A stretch of 64,000 nt of DNA from Kiloniellales bacterium. GTDB lineage: Bacteria > Pseudomonadota > Alphaproteobacteria > Kiloniellales > JAKSDN01. The position numbers and the translations under genes were made by a program. The stretch covers positions 18,834 to 82,833 of the forward strand of contig JBFJPL010000001.1 in assembly GCA_041617155.1 (NCBI GenBank). The letters run 5' to 3'. The notes beneath the pieces are model-generated. The model searched no databases and was not told the DNA's origin. It saw nothing but the letters and a program-made list of their open reading frames with translations. The stretch's first letter is position 1; every line of letters begins with the position of its first letter. This document shows positions 1,289 to 41,179 of this stretch, one piece after another.

Positions 1289-1689
1289 CGAGCCAACCTG
1301 ACCGTTGCCGTCTCTCTCATTTAACGCTCAGTACCGCGAGTAGAATGGGTGCGGCGACTTGCCGGGCGGATTAGCTACGAACCACATGATCTTTGATAAA
1401 GTGGTCATCGGATGCCGCGGTTCTTGTAAAATAACTTTAAAGACTGCTCAAAACTGTAACCCGTACTACGATTTTGGGCAATCTTTCCCTTGTCCGCTCA
1501 CCCGAAACAAGATTCAGCTCGGCAAGCTGCGTCGGTTTTCCCGCCGCGCCGCGTGCTAGACGGGCCAAGTCACCAAGGGCGAGGCCGTTGGGGCGTGATG
1601 TTCAAGTTTTGCCGCTGGTGGTTATGCGATCGGCCGGTTCTGGACTAAGCTTGAGGAATCGGGGACGGAAAGCGAAGGAAGATAAGAAT

Positions 1690-2865
1690 TTGCGGACACA
1701 AGTCGGAATCGTCGGCGCCGGACCTTCGGGTACACTCTTGTCCCGGCTTCTCCGCCTTCGGGGGATCGAGACGGTTATCGTCGAACGGCGCAGTCGTGAT
1801 TATGTCGAGGGCCGGATCCGCGCGGGTGTTCTCGAACAGGGCACCGTCGATCTCCTCAATGACGCCGACGTAGGCGAGAGAATGCGGCGCGAAGGGCTGG
1901 TTCACGAGGGGATCGAAATCAGTCTGAACGGCCGGCTCCATCGAATCGACTTGAGGGCGCTGACCGGCGGCAGCGCGGTCACGGTTTACGGACAGACGGA
2001 AATTCAGAAAGATTTGAACGAGGCGCTGCTGGCCGCGCACGGCCAGCTTCTATTCGAGGCAGAGGATGTGAGCATCCACGACATCGACAGCGATCGGCCG
2101 AGGATCCGCTACCGTATGGACGGTGAGGTGCAGGAGCTCGCCTGCGACTACATTGCCGGCTGCGACGGCTTCCACGGCATCTGCCGCAAGAGCATTCCGG
2201 AGGGCACGCTCAAGACCTTCGAGCGTGTCTACCCGTTTGCTTGGCTCGGAATCCTGTCCGAGACGACACCGGTCAACGATGAGCTGATCTACGCCCAGAA
2301 CGAGCGGGGCTTCGCGCTGTTCAGCATGCGCTCGCACACGATGAGCCGCCTCTATCTCCAGTGTAGGCCCGATGAGGATCTCGATGAGTGGCCGGACGAG
2401 CGGATATGGAAAGAATTGCGTCTGCGGCTCGGTGGAGAGGCGGCCGAGCGCCTGCAAAGCGGACCGTCGATCGAAAAGAGCGTGACGCCGATGCGGAGCT
2501 TCGTGGCCGAGCCGATGCAATATGGGCGCCTATTCCTGGCCGGCGACGCCGCGCACATAGTTCCGCCAACTGGCGCCAAGGGCCTAAATCTTGCAGCGGC
2601 CGATGTCCGGGTCCTGTTTCAAGCGCTGTGCGAGTTCTATGGTGCCGGCCGCAGCGATCTACTCGACGCCTACTCGGACACATGCCTACGCCGGGTCTGG
2701 AAGGCTCAACGTTTCTCGTGGTGGATGACGTCAATGCTCCATCGTTTCCCAGAGGGCAGCCCGTTCGACAACAACGTTCAGCTGGCGGAGCTGGACTACC
2801 TGACCAGCTCTCAAGCCGCCAAGACTTCGCTTGCGGAAAACTATGTCGGCCTGCCTTTCGATTGA
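1690..2865 (+). CDS. pobA: 4-hydroxybenzoate 3-monooxygenase
   Basis: (M)RTQVGIVGAGPSGTLLSRLL...RIRAGVLEQGTVDLL...DYIAGCDGFHGICR...LFLAGDAAHIVPPTGAKGLNLAAADV...ENYVGLPF is collinear with classical PobA. A TTG start at 1690 follows GGAAG. The track start at 1474 is an N-terminal over-extension. Confidence 0.93.
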   Translation: MRTQVGIVGAGPSGTLLSRLLRLRGIETVIVERRSRDYVEGRIRAGVLEQGTVDLLNDADVGERMRREGLVHEGIEISLNGRLHRIDLRALTGGSAVTVYGQTEIQKDLNEALLAAHGQLLFEAEDVSIHDIDSDRPRIRYRMDGEVQELACDYIAGCDGFHGICRKSIPEGTLKTFERVYPFAWLGILSETTPVNDELIYAQNERGFALFSMRSHTMSRLYLQCRPDEDLDEWPDERIWKELRLRLGGEAAERLQSGPSIEKSVTPMRSFVAEPMQYGRLFLAGDAAHIVPPTGAKGLNLAAADVRVLFQALCEFYGAGRSDLLDAYSDTCLRRVWKAQRFSWWMTSMLHRFPEGSPFDNNVQLAELDYLTSSQAAKTSLAENYVGLPFD

Positions 2866-3162
2866 CCGGTCGGTTTCGATGGCCACGATGGAGTTCGCGA
2901 AGTCGCTCACATCCGGTGTTTGCCTTGTTTCTCAATCGGACCAACCCTGCTCCACCACTTAGGTCCGCTACGCATGTGACAGCGGAAGTTGGGCTCGACG
3001 AACGCGCCGTTGCCTTGGCCTGCGGGCAAGACTACGCTGATTTGCGAGTTCGCTGCGACGGCGCGCATAGTTTAGAGCAGCCAACGGCTAGGCCTTCGGC
3101 GGACCCTCGCGCTCGCGGTTCTGCGCCGGCTCAACTGCCAACGACAGAAAGCGGGGGTTGAT

Positions 3163-3176
3163 TTACTCAGTATTAT
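3163..3176. promoter_or_regulatory. Putative operator half-element TTACTCAGTATTAT shared with the 6268-6299 palindrome
   Basis: TCAGTATTATGTGCA (3167-3181) matches TCAGTATTATGCGCA (6272-6286) at 14 of 15 positions. It is an AT-rich motif in GC-rich DNA, about 80 bp upstream of the TRAP operon. Confidence 0.5.
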
Positions 3177-3257
3177 GTGCAGCGCACTGCGCATTCGGCG
3201 AAAAAATGATACGTGCGCCGCTACGTGCCGATCGAATTGTCAGGGGAGGAAACGATC

Positions 3258-4283
3258 ATGAAGATAGGATCCACGCTTGTCGGTGCGCTTATCGCCGCCG
3301 GACTTATGAGCCGTGCCGCGATGGCGGCTGAAATCACGTTGACGGTGCATCACTTCCTGCCGCCCAAAGCAAACGCTCACAGTGAAATGATCAAGCCCTG
3401 GGCCGACCGAATTAAGGAGCAGAGCAACGGCCGGATCGAGATCGAGATCTTTCCGGCCATGTCGATGGGCGGAAAGCCGCCTCAGCTCTACGGCCAGGTG
3501 CGCGACGGGCTCGCGGACATTGTCTGGACGCTGCTCGGCTACACGCCAGGCGTATTCCCGCGCTCTGAAGTATTCGAGTTGCCGCTCGTGCATGGCGGCT
3601 CGGCCAAGGCCACGACAATCGCGCTGAACGCTTCCTACGACCTGCTGGCAGAGGACTTCAAGGACGTCCATGTACTGTTCCTGCACTCTCATGATGGCAA
3701 TTTGATCCACTCGGCGACGCGCCCAGTGCGCACCTTCGCCGACGTGTCGGGGCTGAAGTTGCGCACGCCGTCTCGCACCGGCGCCTGGCTCCTGGAAGCG
3801 TGGAACGCGGAGCCCGTCGGCCTGCCGGTTCCAGCTTTGCCGGAAGCTATGGCGAAAGGCGTGGTCGATGGTGCATTGACCACCTACGAGATTGTACCGG
3901 CCCTGAAGTTGCAGGAACTGGACAAATACGTCACCGAACCGCCAGGGGGCGCCCGCTTCGGCACGGCGGTGTTCATGTTCGCCATGAACAAGGACCGCTA
4001 TGCGGAACTGCCGGATGACCTGAGGGCGATCATCGACGCCAATTCTCGCGATGCCGTCGCAGCTGAGGTCGGCGCGCTGTGGGAAGGCTTTGAGTTCGGA
4101 GGGGTCGAGGCGCTCAAGAAAGCCGGGGTCGAGACCATCGTACTCAACGCGGACGAGGCCGCCAAGTTCGACGCTGCCGCCGCCACGGTCGTGGACCGCT
4201 GGATAGCGGAGATGGCCGGCAAGGGCATTGACGGCGCCGCGCTGGTCGAACAGGCGCGGGCGGCGATTGCCGCGGCGCGCTGA
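3258..4283 (+). CDS. TRAP transporter substrate-binding protein (DctP family)
   Basis: ATG at 3258 follows GGGGAGGA. Signal peptide MKIGSTLVGALIAAGLMSRAAMA. DctP-like body, followed by small and large TRAP permeases. Confidence 0.88.
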   Translation: MKIGSTLVGALIAAGLMSRAAMAAEITLTVHHFLPPKANAHSEMIKPWADRIKEQSNGRIEIEIFPAMSMGGKPPQLYGQVRDGLADIVWTLLGYTPGVFPRSEVFELPLVHGGSAKATTIALNASYDLLAEDFKDVHVLFLHSHDGNLIHSATRPVRTFADVSGLKLRTPSRTGAWLLEAWNAEPVGLPVPALPEAMAKGVVDGALTTYEIVPALKLQELDKYVTEPPGGARFGTAVFMFAMNKDRYAELPDDLRAIIDANSRDAVAAEVGALWEGFEFGGVEALKKAGVETIVLNADEAAKFDAAAATVVDRWIAEMAGKGIDGAALVEQARAAIAAAR

Positions 4284-4352
4284 GCCCCTCCAATCTTGCG
4301 GGCTGGAGCCAGGCGACCCCGGTCCGCACTTCCCCCGATGATGGAGGCGTCA

Positions 4353-4850
4353 ATGCGCTCCGGCCTTGTCAAGTTGGTGGAGCTCTGGGCGTTTCTCGGG
4401 GGACTCCTGCTGATGGTGATCGTCCTGGTCACCACCACCAACGTGATCGCTTTCGCGCTCGACAAGCTGGCGCGGCTGGCTGGCTCAACGGTCTCAGGGC
4501 TTCCCGGATACGAGGACTTCGTGGGATTGGCGATCGGCGCCGCCGCGCTGACCTTCTTCCCCTATTGCCAGCTGCGCAAGGGTCATGTCGCGGTGGACCT
4601 GTTCGTTTCCAAGGCCCCGCGGAGGATGCGCCACGCGCTGGGCTACGTGTGGCTCTTGACCGCAATCGCGACGGCGCTGTTCCTGGCTTACTGGATGTGG
4701 CTGGGGATGTTCGAGAGCCGCTCTGACGATGCGGTCAGCCGTGTGCTGGGTTGGCCGGTGTGGCCGTTCTACGCCCCCGGCGTGGTCTCGCTGGTGCTAT
4801 GGGCGGCGGTCGCCGCCATGCAGATCAGGGGCGGCAAAGTCGATGGGTGA
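4353..4850 (+). CDS. TRAP transporter small permease (DctQ family)
   Basis: Four hydrophobic segments. ATG at 4353 is preceded by GGAGG. Its stop overlaps the start of the large permease gene. Confidence 0.8.
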   Translation: MRSGLVKLVELWAFLGGLLLMVIVLVTTTNVIAFALDKLARLAGSTVSGLPGYEDFVGLAIGAAALTFFPYCQLRKGHVAVDLFVSKAPRRMRHALGYVWLLTAIATALFLAYWMWLGMFESRSDDAVSRVLGWPVWPFYAPGVVSLVLWAAVAAMQIRGGKVDG

Positions 4851-6234
4851 GCGCGAACTCATCGGCCTTGCCGGCCTCGGCATCATGTTCCTTCTGCTCG
4901 CGCTTCGCATGCCGGTCGGCCTAGCCATGCTGGCGATCGGGATCGGCGGCAACTATGTCCTCAGTCTGTTTGTTCCGTTCCTGCGCTTCGAGCCCTATCT
5001 GAACCAGTTCAAGGCACTCTTATGGTCGACCGTGGCGAACTATGACCTGTCGGTCGTGCCGCTGTTCGTGTTGATGGGCTACCTGGCGAGCGAAGCCAAT
5101 CTGAGCCGTGACCTGTTTCGCGGACTCGAGGCGTTGATGAGCCGAAGACGCGGCGGCGTGGCCATGGCGGCGGTTGGCGCCTGCGGTGGCTTCGGCGCGG
5201 TTTGCGGCTCGTCGTTGGCGACCGCGGCGACAATGGGCAAGGTCGCGCTGCCGGAGCTAAGACGTCTGGGATACGCGCCACGTCTCGCAACCGGCGCCCT
5301 GGCGGCGGGCGGCACGTTGGGGATTCTGATCCCGCCTTCGGTGGCACTGGTGCTTTACGCGATCATCGTCGAGGGTTCGATCCTCAAGATGTTCCAGGCT
5401 GCGGTGATCCCGGGTCTTCTGGCCGTGATCGTCTTCATCGCGGTGATCGCGCTTGTGGTGCGGCTGAATCCCGCGCTTGCGCCCGATCCCAGCCCGATGG
5501 AGCGCGAAGCGCGCAGGGAAGCCCTGAGGCGGCTGACGCCGGTTTTGTGCATATTCGGCGGCATCATTCTCGGCTTGGGCTTCGGTTTGTTCACGCCGAC
5601 GCCGGCGGCAAGCATCGGGGTGTTCGTGATCCTGGTCTACGGATTCTGGCTGCGTTGGAAGACCGGCGAAGGGCTGAGCGCGCACGGCGCCGCCCAGGCG
5701 CTACGCGAAACCGCGGTCACATCGGGCATGATCTACCTGATCCTGTTCGGTGCCGAGGTGCTGAAGGGCTTCTTCACCCGCGCCGCCCTGCCCGCCGCGA
5801 TCGCCGATTGGGCGGCGGTCAGCGCATTCGATCCCTGGACGATCCTAATCCTGACGCTGTTGCTCCTGGTCTTGCTGGGCTGCTTCATGGAGTCGCTGGC
5901 GATGATCCTCGTGATCGTTCCGTTCATCTGGCCGACTCTGGTCACGCTGAACGGCGGCGATTACGTGAGGGCCGACAGCGCCGCCTACGGGCTCGATGTT
6001 GAAAGCCTCAAGATTTGGTTCGGGATCCTGGCGCTGGTTGTGGTCGAATTGGGACTGATCACGCCACCCGTTGGACTCAACGTGTTCATCATTTCGTCGC
6101 TGTCCGAGGGCACGCCGATGATGGAAACGTTTCGTGGCGTGGTTCCGTTCCTGATCGCCGAGGTCGGCCGCGTCGGCCTGCTGCTGGCGGTCCCGGCGAT
6201 CTCGCTCTTCGTGCCCCGGTTGCTCGGCGGATGA
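4843..6234 (+). CDS. TRAP transporter large permease (DctM family)
   Basis: MGERELIGLAGLGIMFLLLALRMPVGLAMLAIGIGG... is polytopic and DctM-like. The ATG at 4843 overlaps the DctQ stop. The track start at 4729 is over-extended. Confidence 0.9.
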   Translation: MGERELIGLAGLGIMFLLLALRMPVGLAMLAIGIGGNYVLSLFVPFLRFEPYLNQFKALLWSTVANYDLSVVPLFVLMGYLASEANLSRDLFRGLEALMSRRRGGVAMAAVGACGGFGAVCGSSLATAATMGKVALPELRRLGYAPRLATGALAAGGTLGILIPPSVALVLYAIIVEGSILKMFQAAVIPGLLAVIVFIAVIALVVRLNPALAPDPSPMEREARREALRRLTPVLCIFGGIILGLGFGLFTPTPAASIGVFVILVYGFWLRWKTGEGLSAHGAAQALRETAVTSGMIYLILFGAEVLKGFFTRAALPAAIADWAAVSAFDPWTILILTLLLLVLLGCFMESLAMILVIVPFIWPTLVTLNGGDYVRADSAAYGLDVESLKIWFGILALVVVELGLITPPVGLNVFIISSLSEGTPMMETFRGVVPFLIAEVGRVGLLLAVPAISLFVPRLLGG

Positions 6235-6267
6235 CGGCAAACCGGAAGCTAAAATTCACCTTTGCCA

Positions 6268-6299
6268 ATAATCAGTATTATGCGCATAATACTGATTAT
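6268..6299. promoter_or_regulatory. Perfect 32-bp palindrome ATAATCAGTATTATGC|GCATAATACTGATTAT, a putative tandem operator
   Basis: All 16 base pairs verified by hand. It is built from two nested ATAAT-N4-ATTAT units and ends 17 bp upstream of the 6317 start codon. Confidence 0.7.
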
Positions 6300-6316
6300 A
6301 GAATCGGGAGAGTGCG

Positions 6317-7504
6317 ATGGCACAGTCAATTTTCATCATCGCTGGCGGCGGTATCGGCGGTCTCGCCGCCGCTGTCGGCCTGGCCGGGAAGGGTATTCGG
6401 TCGATCGTGCTCGAACAAGCGCCGCAACTCGGTGAAATCGGTGCCGGCATACAGATCGGCCCGAACGCCTTCCACTGCTTCGACTATCTTGGCATCGGGG
6501 ACGAGGCCCGTGACAAGGCGGTCTACATCGATCAGCTGCGCCTGATGGACGCGACTTCGGGCGAAGAGATCACGCACATTCCTCTCGACGAACCTTTCCG
6601 CCGGCGCTTCGGCAACCCCTATGCGGTCGTGCACCGCGCAGACCTCCATGGTGTCCTGCTCGACGCATGCCGGCGCAGCGATCTGATCGACCTGCGCACC
6701 GACCATCGCGTCGAGGGGTACGACCAGGAAGCGGACGGCGTCCGGGTCCGCCTCGAAGGGCGCGACCCCGTCAACGGGGTTGCGCTAATAGCTGCCGAGG
6801 GGCTCAGGTCGCCGATCCGCGCTCAGATGATCGGCGACGGAGAGCCCGGTGTTTCCGGACATACGACCTATCGCTCGGTGATTCCGACGGAGCAGATGCC
6901 GGAGGATCTGCGCTGGAACGCGGCGACGCTCTGGGCCGGCCCGAAATGCCACATCGTTCATTATCCGCTCAAAGGCTGGAAGCTGTTCAACCTCGTCGTG
7001 ACCTATCACCGCGACGTCACCGAGGCCGTTGCCGGTGTGCCCGTTTCCAAGGAGGAAGTCCGCAAGGGCTTCGAGCACATCGCGCCCCGCGCCCGACAGG
7101 TGATCGAGCACGGCAAGGATTGGAAGCTCTGGGTTCTGTGCGACCGCGACCCGATTACCAATTGGATCGATGGCCGCGTCGTTCTGCTCGGCGACGCCGC
7201 GCATCCGATGCTGCAATATTTCGCGCAGGGCGCCTGCATGGCAATGGAAGACGGTGTCTGTCTCAGCCACATGATGGAGAAGCATGGCGGCAATATCGAC
7301 GCCGCCTTCGAGGCATATCGCGACCAGCGCGTCGTCCGCACCGCGCGGGTGCAAATGAGTTCGCGGCTGATCGGCGAATACATCTACCACCCCGACGGCG
7401 CCAAGGCCTTGGTCCGCAATGCGGTGATGAAATCGAAGAGCCCGGACGACTGGTACAACGGTCTTGCTTGGCTCTATGGCGGGACCGGTCTGACCGCCGC
7501 CTGA
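6317..7504 (+). CDS. FAD-dependent aromatic hydroxylase, most likely 3-hydroxybenzoate 6-hydroxylase
   Basis: IIAGGGIGGLAAAVGLAGKG (GxGxxG), RADLH, LLGDAAHPMLQYFAQGACMAMEDG. Sits directly upstream of gentisate 1,2-dioxygenase. Confidence 0.85.
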   Translation: MAQSIFIIAGGGIGGLAAAVGLAGKGIRSIVLEQAPQLGEIGAGIQIGPNAFHCFDYLGIGDEARDKAVYIDQLRLMDATSGEEITHIPLDEPFRRRFGNPYAVVHRADLHGVLLDACRRSDLIDLRTDHRVEGYDQEADGVRVRLEGRDPVNGVALIAAEGLRSPIRAQMIGDGEPGVSGHTTYRSVIPTEQMPEDLRWNAATLWAGPKCHIVHYPLKGWKLFNLVVTYHRDVTEAVAGVPVSKEEVRKGFEHIAPRARQVIEHGKDWKLWVLCDRDPITNWIDGRVVLLGDAAHPMLQYFAQGACMAMEDGVCLSHMMEKHGGNIDAAFEAYRDQRVVRTARVQMSSRLIGEYIYHPDGAKALVRNAVMKSKSPDDWYNGLAWLYGGTGLTAA

Positions 7505-7526
7505 TCCAACCCGAAGGAGGGCTGAA

Positions 7527-8576
7527 TTGTCACTGACGGAAAAACCGGTCGAGACGCCGGAACGCAAGGCGTTCTACGACAAGATCGACAGCAAGAACCT
7601 GACCCCGCTCTGGGCCGTGCTGTCCGACATCATCCCACCCGAGCCGAAAAGCGCCTGCGTGCCGCATCGGTGGAAATTCGACGAGGCGAAGTCCTACCTG
7701 CTCGAGGCCGGTGGACTGATAACCGCGAAGGAGGCCGAGCGCCGCGTCCTAGTTCTCGAGAATCCGGGCATGCGCGGCGAGAGCAAGATCACGACCTCGC
7801 TTTACGCCGGGCTGCAGCTCGTCCTGCCGGGCGAGGTCGCGCCGGCGCACCGCCACAGCCAGTCAGCGCTGCGCTTCGTCCTCGACGGCGCCGGCGCGCA
7901 CACCGCCGTAAACGGCGAGCGCACGGTGATGGAAGTCGGCGATTTCGTGATCACGCCGCCGTGGGGCTGGCATGACCACGGCAACGAGACCGATGTGCCG
8001 ATGATCTGGCTGGACGGGCTCGACATCCCCATCGTCTCGCTGTTCGACGGCTCCTTTGCCGAAGGTCTGGGCGAGGACGCGCAGCCGATCACGCGCGAGA
8101 CCGGCGACAGCCTCGCCCGCTATGGCGCCAACATGCTGCCGGTTGACTTCGAGACGACGCGTTTGGTCTCGCCGATCTTCAACTATCCCTACGCGCGGTC
8201 GCGCGAGTCGCTCGAGCAAATGAAGAAACAGCAGGAATGGGATCCCTGCCATGGCCTAAAGCTGCGCTATGTCAACCCGGTCGACGGCGGCTTCGCCATG
8301 CCGACCATCGCCCCGTTCCTGCAGTTGCTGCCGAAGGGATTCAAGAGCGCCGCGCACCGCTGCACCGATGCGACCGTCTTCGTGGTCGTCGAGGGCGAGG
8401 GCCGCAGCACCATCGACGGCACGACCTTCGAATGGGGGCCGAAAGACATCTTTGTCGCCCCGAGCTGGAGGTGGACCACGCACGAGGCGGACAGCGAAGC
8501 GGTAATCTTCAGCTACTCCGACCGCGTCGCGCAGCAGAAGCTAGGTCTCTGGCGCGAAGATCGCGGCAACGCCTGA
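7527..8576 (+). CDS. Gentisate 1,2-dioxygenase (bicupin)
   Basis: FYDKIDSKNLTPLWAVL...LENPGMRGESKITTSLYAGLQLVLPGEVAPAHRHSQSALRFVLDGAGAHTAVNGER...GDFVITPPWGWHDHGN. TTG start follows GAAGGAGGG. Confidence 0.9.
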   Translation: MSLTEKPVETPERKAFYDKIDSKNLTPLWAVLSDIIPPEPKSACVPHRWKFDEAKSYLLEAGGLITAKEAERRVLVLENPGMRGESKITTSLYAGLQLVLPGEVAPAHRHSQSALRFVLDGAGAHTAVNGERTVMEVGDFVITPPWGWHDHGNETDVPMIWLDGLDIPIVSLFDGSFAEGLGEDAQPITRETGDSLARYGANMLPVDFETTRLVSPIFNYPYARSRESLEQMKKQQEWDPCHGLKLRYVNPVDGGFAMPTIAPFLQLLPKGFKSAAHRCTDATVFVVVEGEGRSTIDGTTFEWGPKDIFVAPSWRWTTHEADSEAVIFSYSDRVAQQKLGLWREDRGNA

Positions 8577-8590
8577 AGGAGCTTCAAATA

Positions 8591-9292
8591 ATGGAGTACG
8601 TGTTCCCGCCAGCCGCCCCCGCCACAGTCGCCGTGGCGGGCGAAACGGCGCGCTTCCCGGTTCGCCGCATCTTCTGTGTGGGCCGCAACTACGCCGCGCA
8701 CGCGCGCGAGATGGGGCGAGACCCGGACCGCGCGCCGCCGTTCTTCTTCACCAAGCCCGCCGACAGCGTGGTCGATGACGGCGAGACGGTCGCCTATCCG
8801 CCTGAGACGGAGAATTTCCACTACGAGGGCGAACTGATCGCGGCGATCGGCACTGGCGGCTTCGACATTCCCGTCAGGCAGGCTCTCGACCATGTCTGGG
8901 GCTACGCCGTTGGCAACGAACTGACCCGCCGCGATCTGCAGCTCGCGGCGCGCACGCAGGGCCGGCCCTGGGATTGGGGCAAGGCTTTCGACCGGTCCTC
9001 GGTCTGCGGTCCGATCCATCCGGTCGCCGAAGTTGGCCATCCCGCCTCCGGCGCGATCCGGCTGACGGTCAATGGCGAGGTGAAGCAGAACGCCGATCCT
9101 CGGACCGGCCTCTTCTGTCACGGCGATGCACCCGGCCTTGCCGACGTCTGCCTTTACGCCCAGGTTTGTAACAACCGGCGGTTCGATGTTGAGATGACCT
9201 CCTACCCTACGATTGTGCGCATCTTCGCGGCTTGTGACGCGGTCGAGGCCTTCCGCCTGGCTGCCCCCGGAGCCCAACACGACGCGGCCTGA
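8591..9292 (+). CDS. FAH-family hydrolase (fumarylpyruvate or maleylpyruvate hydrolase) with an aberrant C-terminal third
   Basis: RFPVRRIFCVGRNYAAHAREMG...PFFFTKPADS...YEGELIAAIG...GYAVGNELTRRDLQ...GRPWDWGKAFDRSSVCGP fits the FAH fold. After about 9095-9115 the expected L-PGD--TGTP-GVG signature is missing in this frame. Confidence 0.7.
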   Translation: MEYVFPPAAPATVAVAGETARFPVRRIFCVGRNYAAHAREMGRDPDRAPPFFFTKPADSVVDDGETVAYPPETENFHYEGELIAAIGTGGFDIPVRQALDHVWGYAVGNELTRRDLQLAARTQGRPWDWGKAFDRSSVCGPIHPVAEVGHPASGAIRLTVNGEVKQNADPRTGLFCHGDAPGLADVCLYAQVCNNRRFDVEMTSYPTIVRIFAACDAVEAFRLAAPGAQHDAA

Positions 9293-9354
9293 GAAAGATC
9301 AGGCCGTGAACAAAAGCCCAAGATTGATAAGGGTGCACCCAGGAGATAAGGACC

Positions 9355-9876
9355 ATGCGGAGCGATCGAACATTGTCTGAGAAGGTGTGCCAACCCGAAG
9401 AGCTCGGCGTCGAAGCGATATTCGAAATGCCCGGCCACCTGCTTCGACGCTGCCATCAGATCGGCGTTGCGATCTTCATAAACGAGTGCGAGCCCTACGA
9501 GCTGACACCGTTGCAATACGTGACCCTGGCGGCACTGGCGCGATACGGTCCTCATGATCAGGTGACTCTTGGTGGTTTTACCGCGCTCGACCGAACGACA
9601 ATCGCGGTCGTTATCAAGAATCTCGAGGAGCGGGCGCTCGTATCTCGACACTCTTCGACAAAGGACAAGCGCTCGAAGATCGTCGAGATCACCGACACCG
9701 GCCGAGACCTGTTGCTGGCAGCCAAACCCTACGTGGAGCACGCGCAGGACCGCATCGTTGCGCCGCTGAACCACCGCGAACGCGAGCAGCTTACGCGACT
9801 CCTGAGCAAGATTGCCGATGGGAACAATGCGCTCAGCAGGGCGCCGAAGCGCGTAAGATCGAGAGGGACCGATTGA
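9355..9876 (+). CDS. MarR-family transcriptional regulator
   Basis: PGHLLRRCHQIGVAIF...LTPLQYVTLAAL...DRTTIAVVIKNLEERALVSRHSSTKDKRSKIVEITDTGRDLL is a winged-helix MarR pattern. Confidence 0.85.
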   Translation: MRSDRTLSEKVCQPEELGVEAIFEMPGHLLRRCHQIGVAIFINECEPYELTPLQYVTLAALARYGPHDQVTLGGFTALDRTTIAVVIKNLEERALVSRHSSTKDKRSKIVEITDTGRDLLLAAKPYVEHAQDRIVAPLNHREREQLTRLLSKIADGNNALSRAPKRVRSRGTD

Positions 9877-11391: not shown

Positions 11392-12219
11392 TCAAGAGGG
11401 CAGAGACAGCATCTGACGCGCTTCCGCCGGCGTCGCGGGCTTCCTGCCGTACTCGGAGCAGAGCTCGGCGACCCGGGCGACCAGCTCGGCGTTGCTCGCC
11501 GCCAGCCGCGTCCGGTCGAAGCGGAGGTTGTCCTCGAGGCCGGTCCGGCAGTGGCCGCCCAGGTCCAGCGCCCAGTGGTTCATCTGCAGCTGATCGCGGC
11601 CAATGCCGGCGGCGGTCCAGGTCGCCTCCGGCATCAAGTTCTTCAACTGAGCGACCTCGAACTCCAGAATCTCACGGCGGGCCGGCAAGGCGTTTTTCAG
11701 ACCGAAGACGAATTGCACGTGGACCGGTTTGGCCAGCAGGCCGGCCTCGGCCATTTCGGCCGCCGTGTAGAGCATCGCCAGGTCGAAGACCTCGACCTCC
11801 GGCTTGATCCCCTTCTCGAGCATGGTCTCGGCCAGACTGCGGACCAGGTCCGGGTGGTTCTCGTAGACCATGTTCGGAAAATTGACCGACCCGGTCGCGA
11901 GCGAAGCCATGTCCGGCTTCAGGTAGAGCATGCCGCCACGCTGCTCCGGCGCCCGGCCGCGCCCTCCGGTCGAGAATTGGATGATCATGTCTGGGCAGTG
12001 TCTGCGAACGCCTTCCTGAAAGGCGGAGAACTTCTCGGGGTCCGAGGACGAGCTTTCATCGGCCTCGCGGGCATGGACATGGACCAGGGCCGCGCCAGCC
12101 TCGAAGGCCTCGTGGGTCGATTCGATCTGCTCCGCGACCGTGATCGGCACGGCCGGATTGTCCTTTTTGCGCGGCACCGATCCGGTGATCGCGACGGCGA
12201 TGATGCAGGGTTGGCTCAT
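11392..12219 (-). CDS. BKACE-family enzyme (3-keto-5-aminohexanoate cleavage enzyme-like, DUF849)
   Basis: IIAVAITGSVPRKKDNPAVPITVAEQIESTHEAFEAGAALVHVHAR...CRTGLEDNL is the TIM-barrel BKACE pattern. Inserted between pcaG and pcaB. Confidence 0.8.
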   Translation of the reverse strand: MSQPCIIAVAITGSVPRKKDNPAVPITVAEQIESTHEAFEAGAALVHVHAREADESSSSDPEKFSAFQEGVRRHCPDMIIQFSTGGRGRAPEQRGGMLYLKPDMASLATGSVNFPNMVYENHPDLVRSLAETMLEKGIKPEVEVFDLAMLYTAAEMAEAGLLAKPVHVQFVFGLKNALPARREILEFEVAQLKNLMPEATWTAAGIGRDQLQMNHWALDLGGHCRTGLEDNLRFDRTRLAASNAELVARVAELCSEYGRKPATPAEARQMLSLPS

Positions 12220-13963: not shown

Positions 13964-13971
<8 letters not shown>

Positions 13972-14758
13972 GGCCGGCCTCCCTTGCAAAATCGTCGATC
14001 AGATGCGCCAGACCGTCGGGTGCCTCGACGCAGGGCAGGTGTCCGACGCCGTCGATCGTTGTGAAGCGGGAATTTGGAATCAGGTCCGCCAGCGATCGGA
14101 CGAGCGCGGGCGGCGTGGCGCCATCCTCTGTCCCGACCACGCACAGCGCTGGCACCCGCAGCGTTTTCGCCGCATCCGTCAGATCGGCGTCGCGGATCGT
14201 CGCGCAAGTGCCCACATACCCTTCCACGGGTGTGCGGATCAGCATGTTGCGCCAGCCTGCGAGCTCGGCCGGGCGCTCGGCGCGGAACCGCGCGGAGAAC
14301 CAGCGCTCCAGGATGGGCTCGGCCAGCGCCTCGATTCCGCCCGCGCGGATCGCCGCGATCCTCTGGTCCCACATGTCGGGCGGGCCGATCCTGTGCGCGG
14401 TGTCGCACAGCACCAGCGCGCGCGCCAGATCCGGGCGCGCGGCCGCCAGGGCCTGTGCGATCATGCCGCCGACCGAGAGACCGACCAGCAGCGCGCCACG
14501 GATTTCCAGGAGATCGAGCAGCCCAGCGAGGTCGGCGACGTGATCCGACAGCGGGTAAGGCGCTGGCGGTGCTTCCGAAAGCCCGTGGCCGCGCTTGTCG
14601 TAACGCACGACCCGGAAATCGCGGGCGACGGCTTCGACGACGCCGCCCCAGATTCGAAAGTCGGTGCCCAGCGAGTTGGCGAAAACCAACGCCGGCTTCG
14701 AGTCCGCTCCGGTGATCGAATGGTGAAGCACGGCGCCGTTGATCTGCGCGAACCTCAT
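13964..14758 (-). CDS. pcaD: 3-oxoadipate enol-lactonase
   Basis: Alpha/beta hydrolase with GLSVGG nucleophile elbow, VFANSLGTDFRIW, RYDKRGHGLS. First gene of the pca operon. Confidence 0.9.
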
Positions 14759-14829
14759 GTGACACCTCCATCGCCCAAGTTCGGCAGGCGCGCCTGTGCG
14801 GCAAGCCGGATCGTAACATTGGCGGCGCC

Positions 14830-15768
14830 GTGCAACATATTGCTTTTCAGACGGACGACATCTTTCGGATGCAGGGGCGCTCCAAACGGGAGGGGCTTTC
14901 TCTTCTCCCGGTGCCTGGGTCGTATTATGGCGACCTCAAGAAGGAAGGCTATGACCCGGCGCTCGTCCGCCGCCTAGAGGAGAACGGCGTCATGATCGAC
15001 ACCGCGGGCGGCGGGCGGTTTCTGCATGCCGACACCCAGCCCATGGCGGGCGGTCTGGGCAACGACACCATGTACGGCCAGGACGGCGCGGAAACCTACG
15101 TGTTCAGCCGCGGCGACGGGATCGATGCGCTCGACGACAACGGCTGGGACGACACCGACGTGCTGGCGATCCATGACTACAGCCCGGATGAGGTGACGCT
15201 GGGAAACATGGTCCTGGGCAGCGACGGCCTGGTGCTGAGCTTTGCCGGGACGGCGGACCAGATCACTATCTGGAACACGCTGGGCAACAACCGGAACGAC
15301 AAGGTCGAGCAGTTCAAGTTCGATGACGGCACGCTGTGGACGCCGGCTGATATAAATGCCCGTTTGATCTCCGGCACCGGCGGCGGCGACGCGTTGACCG
15401 GCGGTGTTTTCGGCGATCATATCGAGGGCGGCGCCGGCAACGACACGCTTGACGGCCAGGGCGGACCCGACCTGCTGAAAGGCGGCACTGGCGACGACCT
15501 GCTGTGGGGCGGCCTGGGCGACGACACCTTGGTGTTCAAGACCGGCGCCGGCAACGACACGGTCCAGGTCTTCTCAGCCGGCCCAGGCAGCGACGACGTG
15601 CTGGACGTCGGCGGGCTCGGCTATCTCGACCTGGCTTCGGTGCTTGCCGACACGGTTCAGAACGGCACCGACGCGGTGATCACGCCATTGCCGCTGGGCG
15701 GTGACAGCATTACCCTGGTCGGAGTCGACAAGGCGACGCTGTATCAGGACGACTTCATATTTGTCTAG
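14830..15768 (+). CDS. Chimeric ORF: dehydroshikimate-dehydratase/HPPD-like C-terminal remnant fused to an RTX Ca-binding repeat protein
   Basis: The N-terminal ~65 aa (QHIAFQTDDIF...LLPVPGSYYGDL...DPALVRRLEENGVMID..GGRFLH) resembles the C-terminal VOC/HPPD-like domain. From GGLGNDTMYGQDG onward there are GGxGxD nonapeptides (GGAGNDTLDGQGGPDLLKGGTGDDLLWGGLGDDTLVF). It ends in DDFIFV, which resembles a T1SS signal. Confidence 0.65.
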   Translation: MQHIAFQTDDIFRMQGRSKREGLSLLPVPGSYYGDLKKEGYDPALVRRLEENGVMIDTAGGGRFLHADTQPMAGGLGNDTMYGQDGAETYVFSRGDGIDALDDNGWDDTDVLAIHDYSPDEVTLGNMVLGSDGLVLSFAGTADQITIWNTLGNNRNDKVEQFKFDDGTLWTPADINARLISGTGGGDALTGGVFGDHIEGGAGNDTLDGQGGPDLLKGGTGDDLLWGGLGDDTLVFKTGAGNDTVQVFSAGPGSDDVLDVGGLGYLDLASVLADTVQNGTDAVITPLPLGGDSITLVGVDKATLYQDDFIFV

Positions 15769-16000
15769 AAAAAGTTGACGCTCGTGGCGGGATCGGAAGC
15801 AAATTCAGCGGACGCTGCCCTCAGCGATGGCCGGCAGCGAACCGCAACCCGGGCCTCACAACAAAGGTCACTATCGATGGTCTTTGGCATGAGGCGTGGC
15901 GACAGATTCGATCCAAACTACCCGCACCGCGAGAACCTCCAAGCCTCGCCAGTCGGCTGAAAGACGTCTGCAGGTCGTTTCGTGTGGGCCGCGCGCCTGT

Positions 16001-16014
16001 TTGAGATGGATCAA
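16001..16014. promoter_or_regulatory. FNR/FixK-type anaerobox TTGAGATGGATCAA
   Basis: Matches TTGAT-N4-ATCAA at 9 of 10 specified positions. Sits 115 bp upstream of the P-type ATPase ATG at 16130. Confidence 0.7.
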
Positions 16015-16129
16015 TGTCACGGGTCTCGGGAGTCGCCATCACCCAATGTCGATGGCAGGCGGCGGACCGATGGCGCGAAGCGGGCTCAAACGAATGGACA
16101 AGCATTCTGGTTCGGCGCGGCCATGGGGG

Positions 16130-18878
16130 ATGACTGAGCCCGGCGCCCAACCTGGCGTCCCGGCCCCGCCAGGCGGGTTCGATGTAGTGGCGCCGGCGAC
16201 ACGTCCCTGGCCCACCCTGTCCGGGGATGAAGTTCTGGCGGCTCTAGCCAGCAGCGACCAGGGTTTGTCGGCGGTCGAGGCACGGGCACGGCTGGCGACG
16301 GTCGGTCGCAATGCGCTGCCGCGTGCCAAGCGGACCGGCATGCTCGGGCTGTACCTGCGCCAATTCAAGAACCCCCTGGTCTATCTCCTGCTGGCCGCCA
16401 CGGTGGTTTCGCTTTTCGTCGGCGAGCTGGCCGACGCGATCTTCATCTTCGCCGTGCTGCAGCTTAACGCCGCCATCGGTACTTTCCAGGAATGGAAGGC
16501 CGCGGCCAGCGCCGAGGCGTTGGATGCCCTGCTTAGCAGTAGCGCCGTGGTGGTCCGCGACGGCCTACGGCGCCGAATCGACACCTATGAACTGGTCCCC
16601 GGCGACTGGGTCCGACTGGAATCCGGCACCCGAGTGGCCGCCGACCTGCGCCTGCTCAGCGGTCGGGAATTGACGGTCGACGAATCCCTTCTCACCGGCG
16701 AATCGACGCCGGTGACCAAGGACGCCGCGTTTTTGTGCCAGGCCAAGACCCCGGTCGCCGACCAGCACAACATGCTTCACGCCGGCACCACCATGCTTTC
16801 GGGGCGGGCCGAAGGGGTCGTTACGGCGACCGGAAGCCGAACCGAAATCGGCCGTATAGCCGCGGCCCTCGCGCGGGGCGAAGCGGCCGCGCCGCCGCCC
16901 TTGGTGCTCAGGCTAGAACGCCTCAGCCGGCTCGTCGGCTTGGCCACGGTCGTCCTGATCGCGGCTCTGGCCGCTGCCCAGATCGCCCAGGGCACGCCTC
17001 TGGCCACGGTCTTCCTGGTCGCCGTGGCGCTGGCCGTGGCGGCCATACCCGAGGGCCTGCCGGTGGCGATCACGGTGGCGTTGGCGATCGCCACCAGCCG
17101 CATGGGACGGCGCAACGTGATCGTACGTTTTCTGCCGGCGGTCGAGGGTCTGGGCGCCTGCACCCTGATCGCCAGCGACAAGACCGGCACCCTGACCTGC
17201 AACGAGTTGACCGTGAAACGGGTCCGCCTGTTCGGCGACGGCGCGCCGGATCAAGCCGTCGAGATCGGCGGCGAGGGGTTCGAGCCGCGTGGCGACATCC
17301 GTCTTGCCGGCCGCGCTCTCGAACCGCTGGAAGCCGAAGCGCTCAGCCGGCTCGCGGCGTCGGGCGCCCTGTGCAACGAAGCCAGCGTCCGTTTCACCCC
17401 GGCCGGGACCGAACGCGTGGGGGACACGGTCGACGTCGCCTTTCTGGTGCTGGCGGCCAAGCTGGACCTGGACTTAGCGGCCCTGCGCTGCGCCGCGCCG
17501 CAGCTCGGGCTGGTGCCCTATGAACCCGAGCGCCGCTACGGCGCGGCTTTCACGCAAGGCACGCCGGACCAGGGTGCCGCCCCCGGCGCCACGGTTCACG
17601 TCAAGGGCGCGGCCGAGGTGGTGGTGCCCATGTGCCGGGAGATTGACCGCGAGCAGGTCCTCGCCGAGGCCGATAGCCTGGCGGCGCAGGGCTACCGGGT
17701 GCTGGCGGTCGCCCGTGGCGATGCGACCCAGAAAGACGCGCGGGCGTCGGCGCCGGACGCGCTCCACGATCTGCAATTGCTCGGCCTGGTCGGGTTGATC
17801 GACCCGGTCCGCCCGGAAGTTCCGGCGGCCGTCGCCCCGCTGCCGGGCCGCGGGCATCTCGGTGCGCATGATCACCGGCGATCATCCGGAAACCGCGCTC
17901 GCCGTCGCCCGCCGCCTCGACATCGCTGAGAGCTTGGCGGAGGTGGTGACCGGCCAGGACCTGAGGGTGGCCGGGCAGGACCCCGATGCGGTCGCGCGGC
18001 TGTTCGAACGCGGCCGGGTGTTCGCCCGTGTCGAGCCGGTTCAGAAATTGACGATCGTCGAAACGCTGCAACGGCTTGGCGATGTCGTGGCGGTCACCGG
18101 CGACGGGGTCAACGATGCGCCGGCCCTGAGCACCGCGGACATCGGCGTGGCCATGGGCCGGGACGGTACCGACGTCGCGCGCGGCGCGGCGGACCTGATC
18201 CTGACCGACGACAACTTCGCCTCGATCGTTGCCGGGGTGGAGGAAGGCCGCGTCGCCTACGACAACGTGCGCAAGCTCGTCTATCTGCTGATCGCGACCG
18301 GCCTTGCCGAAATCGTGCTGTTCTTCCTGGCCATCGTCTTTGCCCTGCCGTTGCCGCTCTTCGCGGTGCAGCTCTTGTGGCTCAACCTGGTGACCAACGG
18401 CATTCAAGACGTGGCGCTGGCCTTCGAGCGGGGCGAGCCGGGTATTCTCGAGCGGCCGCCCCGGCCGCCGAGCCAGTCGCTGTTTGACCGGCGAATGATC
18501 GGACAGGTGCTGGTGGCCGGCATCTACATGGGCACCATGGCGTTCTTCTTTTACGGCTGGTGCCTGGCCCAAGGGATGGCCGAGGACATGGCGCGCAATC
18601 TGCTGCTGCTGCTCATGGTGCTGTTCGAGAACGCGCACGCGCTCAACGCGCGCTCGGAAACCTGTTCGCTGTTCGGTGTGCCGCTCGCCGCCAACCGATT
18701 CCTGATCGCCGCGATACTGGGCGCCCAGGCCCTGCATATCGGCGTCATGTATCTCTTGGCACCGGACAACCTTTTGGGCGTGAAGCCGGTGGCGTTTTTC
18801 GACTGGATCTTGGTGGCGGCGGTGGCGACTTCCCTGATCGTGGTCATGGAGGCCTACAAGCGCCTGGTCGCCCGTTAA
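16130..18878 (+). pseudogene. P-type (E1-E2) cation-transporting ATPase interrupted by a +1 frameshift in a C-run at 17835-17838
   Basis: Track ORFs 15896-17929 and 17862-18878 are two halves of one ATPase (TGES, [32 protein letters not shown]). Removing one C restores [28 protein letters not shown]. The start is ambiguous (16051-16130). Confidence 0.8.
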
Positions 18879-20908: not shown

Positions 20909-21135
20909 GACCCCGAGGCCGGACAAAAGACCCTGTCGCAGCAAAGCGGGGTACCGCCGGATGCAATGGTCCTGGATCATGCCGACGGCCAGTGATACCT
21001 TGCCATTGGAAGTGGATTCTGTTCCGATTTGACCGCACGCAGCGGTAATCGTCGGATGGACGCCGGCCTGGGGCGGTGTCACGGATGCGCAGCCCGTGGC
21101 TGTAGTGAGCGAATGGGATTGGGGAGGTGTGGGTC

Positions 21136-21924
21136 GTGTCATCGTCGTTCAAGCCGGATTCCGACAACCCGCTGGCAGTCAATGGGCCGGTCGCCCGATA
21201 CGGTCCGTGCCGGGCCTGCAACCCGTGCGAGGTCTGCCCGGTCCGGGATCTCAGCGTGTGCGGCGCCTTCGAGCCCCACGAGCTCGACCGCCTCAACGCC
21301 ATCGTCACGAGGACCCGCCTCCTCGCCGAACAGGCCGTCTTCTACGAATGGGATTCCGCCGATCACGTGTTCAACGTGACGGAAGGCGTTATCCGGCTGT
21401 CGAAAATGCTGCCCGATGGGCGGCGCCAGATCACCGGCTTCCTGTTTCCGGGGGATTTCCTCGGCATCGCCTATGCCGAGACCTACGCCTATACGGCGGA
21501 AGCGGTCTGCCCGGTGGCCCTGTGCCGCTTCCAGAGGCGGCAGCTGGAAAGCCTGTGCCACGAGTTCCCCGAATTGGAAAGACGCATACTCGGCATGGCC
21601 TCCAACGAGATTGTCGAGGCCCAGGAGCAGATGCTGATGCTGGGACGCAAGACCGCCCAGGAGAAGTTGGCGAGTTTTCTCTGCCGCTTGTCAAACCTCT
21701 CCGAGCGCCTGGAGCGGTCGATCGATTCGATCAGTCTGCCGATGAACCGTACGGACATTGCCGATTACCTCGGCCTAACCACGGAGACGGTGAGCCGAAC
21801 ATTCTCCCAACTGGCGAAACAGGGGGTTCTCGAACTTGCTTCCGCGCAGCATGTGATTCTGCGGCAGCGGGAAAAGCTGTTGGAGCTGGCCGAGGGCAAT
21901 GCCCGATACCAAAGTCCACTGTGA
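21136..21924 (+). CDS. Crp/Fnr-family regulator, Fnr/FnrN type with N-terminal Cys cluster
   Basis: CRACNPCEVCPVRDLSVCG plus central Cys residues (AVCPVALC), a cNMP-like barrel, and HTH RTDIADYLGLTTETVSRTFSQL with the E--SR recognition motif. GTG at 21136 follows GGGAGG. The track start at 21127 is also possible. Confidence 0.88.
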   Translation: MSSSFKPDSDNPLAVNGPVARYGPCRACNPCEVCPVRDLSVCGAFEPHELDRLNAIVTRTRLLAEQAVFYEWDSADHVFNVTEGVIRLSKMLPDGRRQITGFLFPGDFLGIAYAETYAYTAEAVCPVALCRFQRRQLESLCHEFPELERRILGMASNEIVEAQEQMLMLGRKTAQEKLASFLCRLSNLSERLERSIDSISLPMNRTDIADYLGLTTETVSRTFSQLAKQGVLELASAQHVILRQREKLLELAEGNARYQSPL

Positions 21925-29762: not shown

Positions 29763-29848
29763 CCCGAACGCAGCGACCAGAGGAAAGCGCCCAAGCCGAT
29801 CAGGCCGAGCAGGAGCGCGATCGGGATCAAGTAAAGCATGCCGCTCAT
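29699..29848 (-). CDS. ccoS: cbb3 oxidase maturation protein CcoS/FixS
   Basis: MSGMLYLIPIALLLGLIGLGAFLWSLRSGQYDDLDGAAERILFDDE. ATGA overlap with ccoI. The track entry (to 30265) is over-extended. Confidence 0.88.
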   Translation of the reverse strand: MSGMLYLIPIALLLGLIGLGAFLWSLRSGQYDDLDGAAERILFDDEEDS

Positions 29849-32046: not shown

Positions 32047-32525
32047 CACTCGATCACCACGCGGCGCCGCGCCTGATAGACACCGCCCGGGTGCTCGGCC
32101 AGGATCAAGAGATCCCACTGGCCGGGCAGGGGCAGCACGAGTTCGGTGCCGTAGCGGCCCGCCGCGCGCTTGGCGAGCGTCACCGTCGTGTCGTGACCGC
32201 TGTGGGTCGGCCGTATCAGCCTGGCACGAACCCGGTCCGGGATGACGGCGCCACCACGGCGATCCCGCAGGGTGACCTCGATCCGAACCCCCTGCGCGCC
32301 GGTCGATTGGACCACCGATTCGAGCTGCCAGCCGAGCGTCCGCTGCGCGCGGGCGGCCTCGAGCGTCCGGTTGTAGTCGACCCCTTTGCTATAGGCGCCG
32401 ACGGTCTCCAGGCCGGTCCAGCTGGTGAAGGCGAAGATCATCATGATGCCGTTGGCCGCCAGGACCACGGCGAACATGGCGAAGAACACCCAGGGACCCC
32501 AGCCCAGACGCCGTCGGTCGATCAT
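32046..32525 (-). CDS. ccoH: CcoH/FixH
   Basis: One N-terminal TM segment, typical size, and position between ccoG and ccoI. Confidence 0.85.
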   Translation of the reverse strand: MIDRRRLGWGPWVFFAMFAVVLAANGIMMIFAFTSWTGLETVGAYSKGVDYNRTLEAARAQRTLGWQLESVVQSTGAQGVRIEVTLRDRRGGAVIPDRVRARLIRPTHSGHDTTVTLAKRAAGRYGTELVLPLPGQWDLLILAEHPGGVYQARRRVVIE

Positions 32526-34009: not shown

Positions 34010-34025
34010 AGCGGCGAGCCCCCGG

Positions 34026-34874: not shown

Positions 34875-34877
34875 GGC

Positions 34878-35054
34878 TCACTTCTCCCCTTGGCTTTTCG
34901 GGTCATCGCCCTCCAGGGGGATGCGCGCGTGTTTCTCCATCTCGGATTTGCGCTTCGGCCACAGCACCCAGGCGACGATGCCCAGGAACAGGAGCATCAT
35001 CCAGACCACCCAGTAGGGGCGCAGCCAGTCGTAGAGCGTGCCGAGGATCTCCAT
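34878..35054 (-). CDS. ccoQ: cbb3 oxidase small subunit CcoQ/FixQ, 58 aa
   Basis: Manual translation gives MEILGTLYDWLRPYWVVWMMLLFLGIVAWVLWPKRKSEMEKHARIPLEGDDPKSQGEK. It is below the ORF-track size cut-off and sits between ccoO and ccoP. Confidence 0.85.
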   Translation of the reverse strand: MEILGTLYDWLRPYWVVWMMLLFLGIVAWVLWPKRKSEMEKHARIPLEGDDPKSQGEK

Positions 35055-35066
35055 GGCGCGGCCCTC

Positions 35067-35789: not shown

Positions 35790-35799
35790 GGTGCGCTCC

Positions 35800-37272: not shown

Positions 37273-37385
37273 TTCCCCTCCCCGCTTTCGGTCCTCGCGT
37301 CCTCCGATCGCGGTCGGGCGGGGCATCGTCCGCACGGCGCCGCGTCAGGCCGGCCGGAAACTGGCCGAACTTGTTGCAGTAAACA

Positions 37386-41019: not shown

Positions 41020-41179
41020 TTTCCTGACCTCCCCTTACCGTCACTGGCGACTTTCGAAGCCGCAATCGTCGGCCTCTAAGAGGCCTCAATGTGAAAGAAT
41101 TTTACAATAGACCTGTTGCCGACGACTTAAATTTTATATTTAATTTTTCGAGAAAATACGATTTTGTCTGGAATATTCA

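Follow-up and report, generated by a model that had tools for sequence, protein, structure and literature searches.

3-Dehydroshikimate dehydratases of the QuiC1/QsuB type supply protocatechuate to the pca pathway. Both QuiC1 and QsuB have a C-terminal domain which resembles 4-hydroxyphenylpyruvate dioxygenase (HPPD) (PMC7442255). A further described system is the PcaQ-regulated pcaDCHGB operon of Agrobacterium, Sinorhizobium, and related Alphaproteobacteria. RTX proteins carry an uncleaved secretion signal at their C-terminus; their export by a type I secretion system (T1SS) depends on this C-terminus and tolerates a foreign N-terminus (PMC3034196; PMC6891781). Genes for the ABC transporter, the membrane-fusion protein (MFP), and the outer-membrane protein (OMP) at the same locus are usual though not obligatory (PMC3034196). 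Here we analyze an open reading frame (ORF) which joins parts of such genes at the border of a pca operon. It lies on a stretch of 64,000 nucleotides of a Kiloniellales bacterium (GCA_041617155.1, contig JBFJPL010000001.1), the whole of which we call the window. We suggest that this ORF is very probably a lineage-specific patchwork, left behind when the genome of an uncultured alphaproteobacterium was rearranged.

According to the ORF listing, the chimeric ORF (14830..15768, plus strand) starts with GTG, has its stop codon at 15766–15768, and codes for 312 amino acids ending in ...YQDDFIFV. Its GTG is 71 bp away from the start of pcaD, which is encoded on the opposite strand. The sequence-only reading had let the ORF begin at 14759, which is in fact the first base after pcaD; the residues that it quoted, the distance and orientation of pcaD, the GGxGxD repeats, and the DDFIFV end were all borne out. 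It had regarded the ORF as the mark of a deletion or recombination, and our results support this. The scar is an ordinary and apparently recent one which happens to leave an open chimeric frame, and it is not a new kind of protein.

The N-terminal part, searched separately, is homologous to HPPD-like (VOC) domains and is called the relic in the following. A phmmer search with 82 amino acids (14803–15048) against 1.84 billion representative sequences gave 170 matches at E ≤ 1e-3, the best of them with E 3.6e-22 and 63% identity. The index-free search was required, as a word-index search with the same fragment gave nothing. A lack of similarity to VOC/HPPD domains, which had been named beforehand as an argument against a scar, was thus not what we observed. 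By tblastn the homology extends in frame from 14815 to 15057 (63% identity, E 5e-27) and starts five codons before the GTG. Among the sequences of the PDB the best match is 5hmq_A (E 5.6e-9, residues 518–594), followed by many HPPDs at about 1e-5. This 637-residue chain was deposited as 4-hydroxyphenylpyruvate dioxygenase, and we take it to be QuiC1, the two-domain dehydroshikimate dehydratase of Pseudomonas putida. The NCBIfam models 4HPPD (TIGR01263) and QuiC (NF042435) match at positions 236–312 of 353 (E 1.2e-10, 41 bits with a cut-off of 277) and 517–594 of 635 (E 4.2e-9, 27.6–35.4 bits with a cut-off of 1200), respectively. Pfam Glyoxalase (PF00903) alone stays below its threshold (13.6 bits, cut-off 20.6).

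The relic corresponds to residues about 243–323 of 630-aa fusions of an HPPD-like domain with a shikimate dehydrogenase, and to residues 518–594 of 5hmq_A. The end of the domain, about 20–47 C-terminal residues including the conserved FFE..QR..GFG motif, is missing; measured against P0127, a stand-alone HPPD-like protein of 369 aa, ∼47 residues are absent at the end. The homology that the sequence-only reading saw in residues 2–65 holds, although these residues are an internal slice and not the last part of the domain. Likewise its estimate that the N-terminal ∼85% of the enzyme is missing has to be replaced: on the fusion architecture the losses are ∼38% N-terminal to the relic and ∼49% C-terminal to it. 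A complete two-barrel HPPD domain (TIGR01263, PF14696 plus PF00903) is not present. Of the three ligand positions of the metal triad His-His-Glu, the relic holds one, the His of QHIAF; its counterpart in the Pseudomonas fluorescens HPPD 1cjx is residue 240, presumably a metal ligand. The first-barrel side and the FFE..QR motif, which carries the Glu, are absent. As judged from its sequence the relic cannot be an enzyme, because it comprises about a quarter of the HPPD-like domain with one of three metal-ligand positions. No other piece of an HPPD-like enzyme gene was detected in the window by tblastn.

The relic shows few signs of decay. It has no stop codon or frameshift over 81 codons. Of 23 positions that show no variation among nine intact homologues it retains 21, a value within the range of these homologues; in leave-one-out controls each of them keeps 23 of 23–25 invariant positions. 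The two positions lost are a Gly in GxGVQH and the Tyr of LHAYT. With seven members of the HPPD-like/shikimate-dehydrogenase fusions as reference, 29 of 31 invariant positions are retained. Because the invariant residues are kept to this extent and the frame is undisturbed, the truncation looks recent; residual constraint is the alternative. Two apparent leftward features were rejected. The extension of the homology to 14752–14778 (TSCDTSIAQ versus TDCDRYLRQ of P0124) is regarded as chance, as it involves a 12-residue gap and one homologue only. The repeat D5 (14809–14830 versus 15415–15436) is not an RTX-like left end; it results from shared glycine codons, and the closest HPPD-type homologues already read L-G-G-G-V-Q-H at this place.

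Residues 77–312 form the RTX half. Both PF06594 (46.9 bits) and PF00353 (38.7 bits with a cut-off of 23, in three stretches) score above their cut-offs. The first part is an HCBP-related module of the type GND..YG...TYVF..GDG.D.I.D...ITI......VE.F.F.DGT.W, which is followed by six consecutive units of the tandem GGxGxDxUx nonapeptide characteristic of RTX proteins; the DNA of this block has a 27-nt tandem repeat at 15468–15525. An AlphaFold (AF2) model, for which 45 RTX homologues were aligned, reaches an average predicted local distance difference test score (pLDDT) of 81.5, with ∼90 or more for residues 71–312 and ∼90–97 over residues 180–300, where a beta-strand occurs every nine residues. 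Residues 1–37 are below 50, partly by construction since the alignment of the model held RTX proteins only. A Foldseek search against the PDB returned, each with probability 1.00, T1SS lipases (2z8x, 2qua), AlgE R-modules, the RTX block V of CyaA, and serralysins, and the repeat block is predicted to be a parallel beta-roll. In 40 of 119 RTX homologues the C-terminus aligns end-to-end with the last ∼85 residues of the ORF. The C-terminal domain ending in DDFIFV is the presumed region of the uncleaved type I secretion signal, which usually takes up about the last 60 residues. On the model the RTX half is structurally complete in its functional C-terminal portion, with its HCBP-related module, a predicted six-repeat Ca2+-binding beta-roll, and the presumed C-terminal secretion domain. 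The homologues aligned in this way have 26 to >300 further residues before the equivalent of residue 72; therefore the RTX gene lost its own 5′ end.

In comparison with the T1SS-secreted RTX exoproteins, including the rhizobiocin-like "calcium-binding proteins" of Alphaproteobacteria, the RTX half has the same GGxGxD nonapeptides, HCBP-related module, and predicted parallel beta-roll. The nearest structures are beta-roll domains, namely those of the Pseudomonas MIS38 lipase (2z8x), Serratia LipA (2qua), the AlgE R-modules, CyaA block V, and the serralysins. The acidic pI of the chimera (4.05), the lack of Cys, and the acidic-then-hydrophobic C-terminus DDFIFV are also RTX features (PMC3034196; PMC6891781). 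Unlike these exoproteins, however, the chimera has no recognizable functional N-terminal body and carries the relic of an enzyme gene in place of an N-terminus of its own. In addition, no ABC, MFP, or OMP secretion genes are found among the ORFs scanned within the 64 kb, and the nearest homologue is only ∼36–40% identical. There is no other RTX gene in the window.

At the join the HPPD-type homologues read T-x-P-(M/L/F)-A-G-(G/Q/R)-(I/F)-F-F-E and the RTX units G-G-x-G-N-D, and the chimeric ORF reads T-Q-P-M-A-G-G-L-G-N-D-T-M-Y-G. The RTX homology begins at ORF residues 72–74, so that both homologies overlap on A-G-G-L (15046–15057). The DNA at 15043–15086 is 75% identical to an internal RTX unit (15421–15464), and the 10-mer GGCGGGCGGT at 15045–15054 is repeated 35 nt upstream inside the relic. 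Because the join falls on glycine codons which both parents can read, a microhomology-mediated deletion is suggested; the simplest reading would be that it joined two runs of glycine codons.

We propose the following course of events. The locus would formerly have held a gene for an HPPD-like enzyme, part of a quinate/shikimate cluster and most probably coding for a ∼630-aa fusion. This gene would have lost its first ∼242 codons together with everything between it and pcaD, and also everything after about codon 323 (∼307 codons). A microhomology-mediated deletion on the glycine codons A-G-G-L would have brought the remaining 81 codons into one frame with the final ∼236 codons of an RTX gene. 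Provided that the product is made, a type I system whose genes lie elsewhere would carry it out of the cell with the C-terminus leading, and Ca2+ binding would make it fold on the outside, with the relic trailing as a disordered N-terminal tail.

Several observations weigh against this reading. The in-frame continuity could be luck, which has a chance of one in three, and at 65% GC runs without a stop codon are nothing unusual. The low pLDDT of residues 1–70 is partly an artifact of an alignment without HPPD sequences. The RTX half has no homologue above ∼40% identity and the parental RTX gene was not found. No HlyD, TolC, or T1SS-type ABC gene is present among the ORFs of the window that were scanned. 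No close relative was found, the best values being 70% identity for pcaD, at most 70% for the relic, and at most ∼40% for the RTX half; because of this, neither the ancestral arrangement nor the number of events nor the parent of the RTX part was observed. Furthermore, GTG 14830 has no good Shine–Dalgarno sequence, and a scan for the sigma-70 consensus (14500–16300, both strands), which is weak for alphaproteobacterial or activator-dependent promoters, revealed no promoter.

These last points also bear on the question of whether the chimera is a working new gene, that is, translated from GTG 14830, exported by a T1SS, and with the relic exapted as an N-terminal passenger. We regard this as doubtful. 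No stop interrupts the frame at either junction, the presumed secretion domain and the predicted beta-roll are intact, and T1SS export requires the C-terminus and accepts a foreign N-terminus (PMC3034196; PMC6891781). The 312-aa form is the one chosen by gene callers, and the single nucleotide polymorphisms (SNPs) of the ORF among ten assemblies are protein-neutral, the variant P0001 carrying one substitution (G262V). On the other hand, the polymorphisms are too few for a test of selection, both parental promoters should have been deleted, and no promoter-like site and no T1SS genes were seen in the regions named above. The GC content at third codon positions (GC3) of the relic is also lower (0.75) than that of the RTX part (0.857), and somewhat below the values of the neighboring genes (0.82–0.89). 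The GTG is without a convincing Shine–Dalgarno sequence, whereas the alternative in-frame start ATG 14992 (M55) has GAGGAG 9 nt upstream; a further in-frame start is ATG 15043 (M72). The length of a 258-aa cluster member, P0122, corresponds to a start at M55 (312 − 54), a match of length only. From the sequence we consider it a serious possibility that the ORF is not expressed or is selectively neutral, and a slightly smaller one that the full chimera is made; production of the RTX part only, from one of the internal ATGs (M55 or M72), appears the least likely of the three.

Returning to the patchwork and the origin of its relic, the donor was most likely not a dehydratase of the QuiC/QsuB type but a fusion of ∼630 aa. 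The five best representatives are not of QuiC type, and two of them, P0123 and P0124 (630 and 633 aa), match in the middle of the protein (residues ∼243–320). According to Pfam these proteins consist of an N-terminal HPPD-like part (PF14696 plus PF00903) and a C-terminal shikimate dehydrogenase (PF08501). A search with P0123 identified a small fusion family (P0273–P0283, 623–663 aa). The members, P0123 and P0273–P0283, are labeled "4-hydroxyphenylpyruvate dioxygenase" by their sources (JGI). We know of no characterized member, and the family seems to be uncharacterized and unnamed. In a blastp comparison of the relic with all collected proteins, the top 16 matches belong to this family or are apparent truncated members of it (44–70% identity). 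P0273–P0275 reach 68–70%, and QuiC1-type proteins (AP_endonuc_2 plus HPPD-like) 38–45%. Over the 81 aligned columns the relic is 66–67% identical to P0273–P0275, to which P0123 itself is 60–64% identical. The resemblance to the fusions is confined to these 81 residues (66–70% identity to residues ∼233–323 of the fusions), ∼13% of the protein; in contrast to the fusion architecture, PF14696 plus PF00903 followed by PF08501, no first-barrel (Glyoxalase_5) or shikimate-dehydrogenase sequence is left and the end of the second barrel is gone. The relic is thus a descendant fragment of the family and not a member. Elsewhere, the fusion genes follow a LysR or IclR regulator gene every time (loci L091, L098–L103), and in L098 the surroundings, with genes for DHquinase_II, AP_endonuc_2, and TRAP transporters (DctP), are a quinate/shikimate setting.

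The sequence-only reading had proposed a dehydroshikimate dehydratase as donor, which was right with respect to the quinate/shikimate pathway and not with respect to the QuiC/QsuB type. With a two-domain dehydratase of this type as donor, the fragment would lie near the C-terminus of the enzyme, with a loss of only ∼43 residues on that side. Such a donor would agree with the best PDB match, 5hmq_A, at residues 518–594 of 637 (deposited as HPPD, which we take to be QuiC1) and with the match of the QuiC model at 517–594 of 635. Moreover, the relic aligns with the HPPD-like C-terminal domain that QuiC1 and QsuB own (PMC7442255), and genes of the QuiC1 type adjoin pcaD in two loci, co-directionally in L083 and divergently in L062, and are found within 10 kb of it in L014. 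Nevertheless, such a donor is very unlikely. Identity to QuiC1-type proteins does not exceed 45%, the closest sequences (66–70%) and all top 16 matches are fusions or apparent fragments of them, and the relic is nearer to P0273–P0275 than an undoubted member of that family is. In addition, no remnant of the AP_endonuc_2/TIM-barrel domain is found in the window.

An assembly or binning artifact, in which two unrelated contigs were joined on a GGC-rich repeat, is extremely improbable. The source is indeed a metagenome-assembled genome (MAG), and the join lies on low-complexity glycine codons which recur in RTX genes. However, pcaD, the ORF, and an ATPase gene have the same layout in nine per-run Logan assemblies and in a further MAG, GCA_041579315.1; at least 10 sequencing runs gave this layout independently. 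The DNA identity among these is 99.85–99.95%, with different SNPs and no gaps. The few SNPs in the ORF leave the protein unchanged, the relic is free of all differences including that of P0001, and the exact 312-aa protein or the variant P0001 (G262V) is present in NCBI MAGs. Since the same layout recurs in the MAG and the per-run assemblies, the junction is real, a lineage-specific scar and not an artifact. The uniform composition and codon usage across the junction also speak against two unrelated contigs. We rejected recent foreign DNA as well, because the GC3 of the RTX part is within the range of the neighboring genes (0.82–0.89) and neither composition nor codon usage shows an anomaly across the locus.

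The sequence-only reading had further named a widespread fusion as evidence against a scar, and the architecture was seen nowhere else in the databases searched. Among 5.8 billion clustered proteins the next match is 32% identical and covers the RTX part only, none of the closest HPPD-type relatives examined (1.84 billion representatives searched) has RTX repeats, and a scan of JGI metagenome contigs with the ORF yielded distant RTX matches and no close relative. A genuine conserved but rare multidomain family of a VOC subdomain with RTX, for which the open frame and nothing else speaks, is effectively refuted, as no second example exists in these collections and 81 residues cut from a two-barrel VOC fold, without two of its three metal ligands, do not make a domain.

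The scar borders on the pca operon, which has the order pcaD-C-H-G-BKACE-pcaB and whose first gene, pcaD, forms the left border of the scar. For comparison we took 80 pcaD loci of other species from a scan of 185,579 species genomes; the best of these are 68–70% identical. Of the 80 loci, 31 have a gene for a PcaQ homologue divergently and directly upstream of pcaD; L011, one of the two closest, is among them. In L012 an oxidoreductase gene takes this position, so that pcaQ is not found in every relative. The pcaQ–pcaD intergenic regions share a dyad resembling ATAACC-N4-GGTTA and a box, TCATTTTACNTAACC, which is matched exactly upstream of pcaD in 18 loci with pcaQ. It is situated 40–120 bp upstream of pcaD in L011, L031, L042, L046, L048, and 13 others, in Rhizobiales, Thalassospira, and Kiloniellales-like genomes. 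The box with the dyad is presumably the PcaQ operator/promoter.

In the window the box is absent even when three mismatches are allowed, tblastn with PcaQ gave no match at E ≤ 1e-5, and no LysR or IclR gene is present among the ORFs scanned. The only regulators among these are a MarR gene (9355–9876), which ends a gentisate cluster, and a Crp-family gene (21127–21924). Thus our locus resembles the PcaQ-regulated operons in the order of the first genes, pcaD-pcaC-pcaH-pcaG, with pcaC, pcaH, pcaG, and pcaB above their NCBIfam equivalog cut-offs like pcaD, downstream of which they lie. It differs from them in that the divergent pcaQ and the box are missing, with the relic/RTX ORF in their position, and in that a BKACE-type gene is located between pcaG and pcaB. 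This BKACE-family gene (11392–12219, minus strand) scores 479 bits with NF053568 (3-oxoadipate:acetyl-CoA acetyltransferase; cut-off 350) and would be a route from 3-oxoadipate which is independent of PcaIJ.

The absence of the usual regulator and its operator fits a loss of the regulator, and it is plausible that the same event removed the regulator and the 5′ part of the enzyme gene. The sequence-only reading had already held that the scar removed a divergent pca regulator; the absence is borne out, and the removal by the scar is a plausible reading of it. A single deletion lacks direct support, as the LysR gene found ahead of the donor family in other genomes does not code for PcaQ (20–23% identity). 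The left endpoint of the deletion must lie within the 56-bp spacer, which carries on the minus strand the Shine–Dalgarno sequence of pcaD, GGAGG, 6 nt before the ATG. The spacer also contains a perfect 12-bp palindrome, CAGGCGCGCCTG (14785–14796), which we rejected as a regulatory site: the window has four matches with at most one mismatch where 1.2 are expected, and 1 of 100 shuffles reaches four, a count that does not stand out clearly from chance. The pcaD promoter must lie in the relic/RTX DNA, because no gene upstream on the minus strand could provide read-through.

Table 1. Coordinates of the features at the scar, in positions of the window
Feature	Position	Strand	Basis
pcaD (3-oxoadipate enol-lactonase), full length	13964..14758	-	TIGR02427 329.7 bits, cut-off 255.85; relatives align from residue 1
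Spacer of 56 bp, from the pcaD start codon to the first codon of the relic	14759..14814	.	sequence read
HPPD-like (VOC) relic, 81 codons, in frame	14815..15057	+	tblastn, phmmer, blastp, NCBIfam
Junction zone A-G-G-L, readable by both parents	15046..15057	+	alignment; RTX matches start at ORF residues 72-74
HCBP-related RTX-associated module, ORF residues 77-180	15058..15369	+	PF06594 46.9 bits, residues 134-174; pLDDT ~85-95
Six consecutive GGxGxDxUx nonapeptides, residues 182-235; degenerate seventh to residue 246	15373..15534	+	PF00353 38.7 bits; motif list
C-terminal domain, residues 247-312, ends DDFIFV (presumed secretion signal region)	15568..15765	+	end-to-end alignment with RTX homologues

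Some neighboring features of the window were recorded as well. The ATPase gene next to the ORF is a P-type cation ATPase split into two overlapping ORFs, 16070–17929 (Cation_ATPase_N, E1-E2, Cation_ATPase) and 17868–18878 (Hydrolase, Cation_ATPase_C). The frame changes at a run of four C (17835–17838), and removing one C from gtcgCCCCgctgc gives back ...VARCRAAGISVRMITGDH..., as expected for the family. The MAG contig L001 has the same sequence here; the split is due to a genuine frameshift or to an error in the homopolymer. The gentisate cluster upstream of the pca operon (1474–9876, plus strand) comprises the TRAP genes dctPQM, a gene for an FAA-family hydrolase, and the MarR regulator at its end, together with genes for 3-hydroxybenzoate 6-monooxygenase (6317–7504), gentisate 1,2-dioxygenase (7527–8576), and a second FAD monooxygenase (1474–2865). 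At 40950–42150 about 1.2 kb are without an ORF >100 aa, a tRNA, or an Rfam match. Two AT-rich troughs (GC 0.39–0.45) are located at ∼41000–41300 and ∼41600–41900, the rest of the window having 60–74% GC. Ordinary respiratory sets are found at 29845–37335 and 46698–54021: a cbb3 oxidase (ccoN/O/P) with FixG-like and FixI-like (heavy-metal P-type ATPase) proteins, and the cytochrome c maturation proteins CcmB/C/E/F/H with a thioredoxin-like protein.

The finding leaves the knowledge of RTX proteins, VOC enzymes, and the beta-ketoadipate pathway unchanged. It is of practical use for annotation: the ORF will be called a "calcium-binding protein", and a remnant of a pseudogene makes up residues 1–76. 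With its join on glycine codons, the locus illustrates on a small scale that the GGC-rich repeats of RTX genes are a possible source of microhomology for illegitimate recombination. The remnant shows that a gene of the quinate/shikimate branch once adjoined the pca operon and was lost at this locus. Control of the operon must differ from that in many related Alphaproteobacteria, because their PcaQ regulator and operator are lacking. Finally, the scar might be used twice, with the chimera transcribed and secreted as a new exoprotein and the DNA of the relic supplying the promoter of the pca operon. We consider this quite unlikely; if true, it would be a case of early gene birth, and protocatechuate catabolism would be independent of PcaQ in this lineage.

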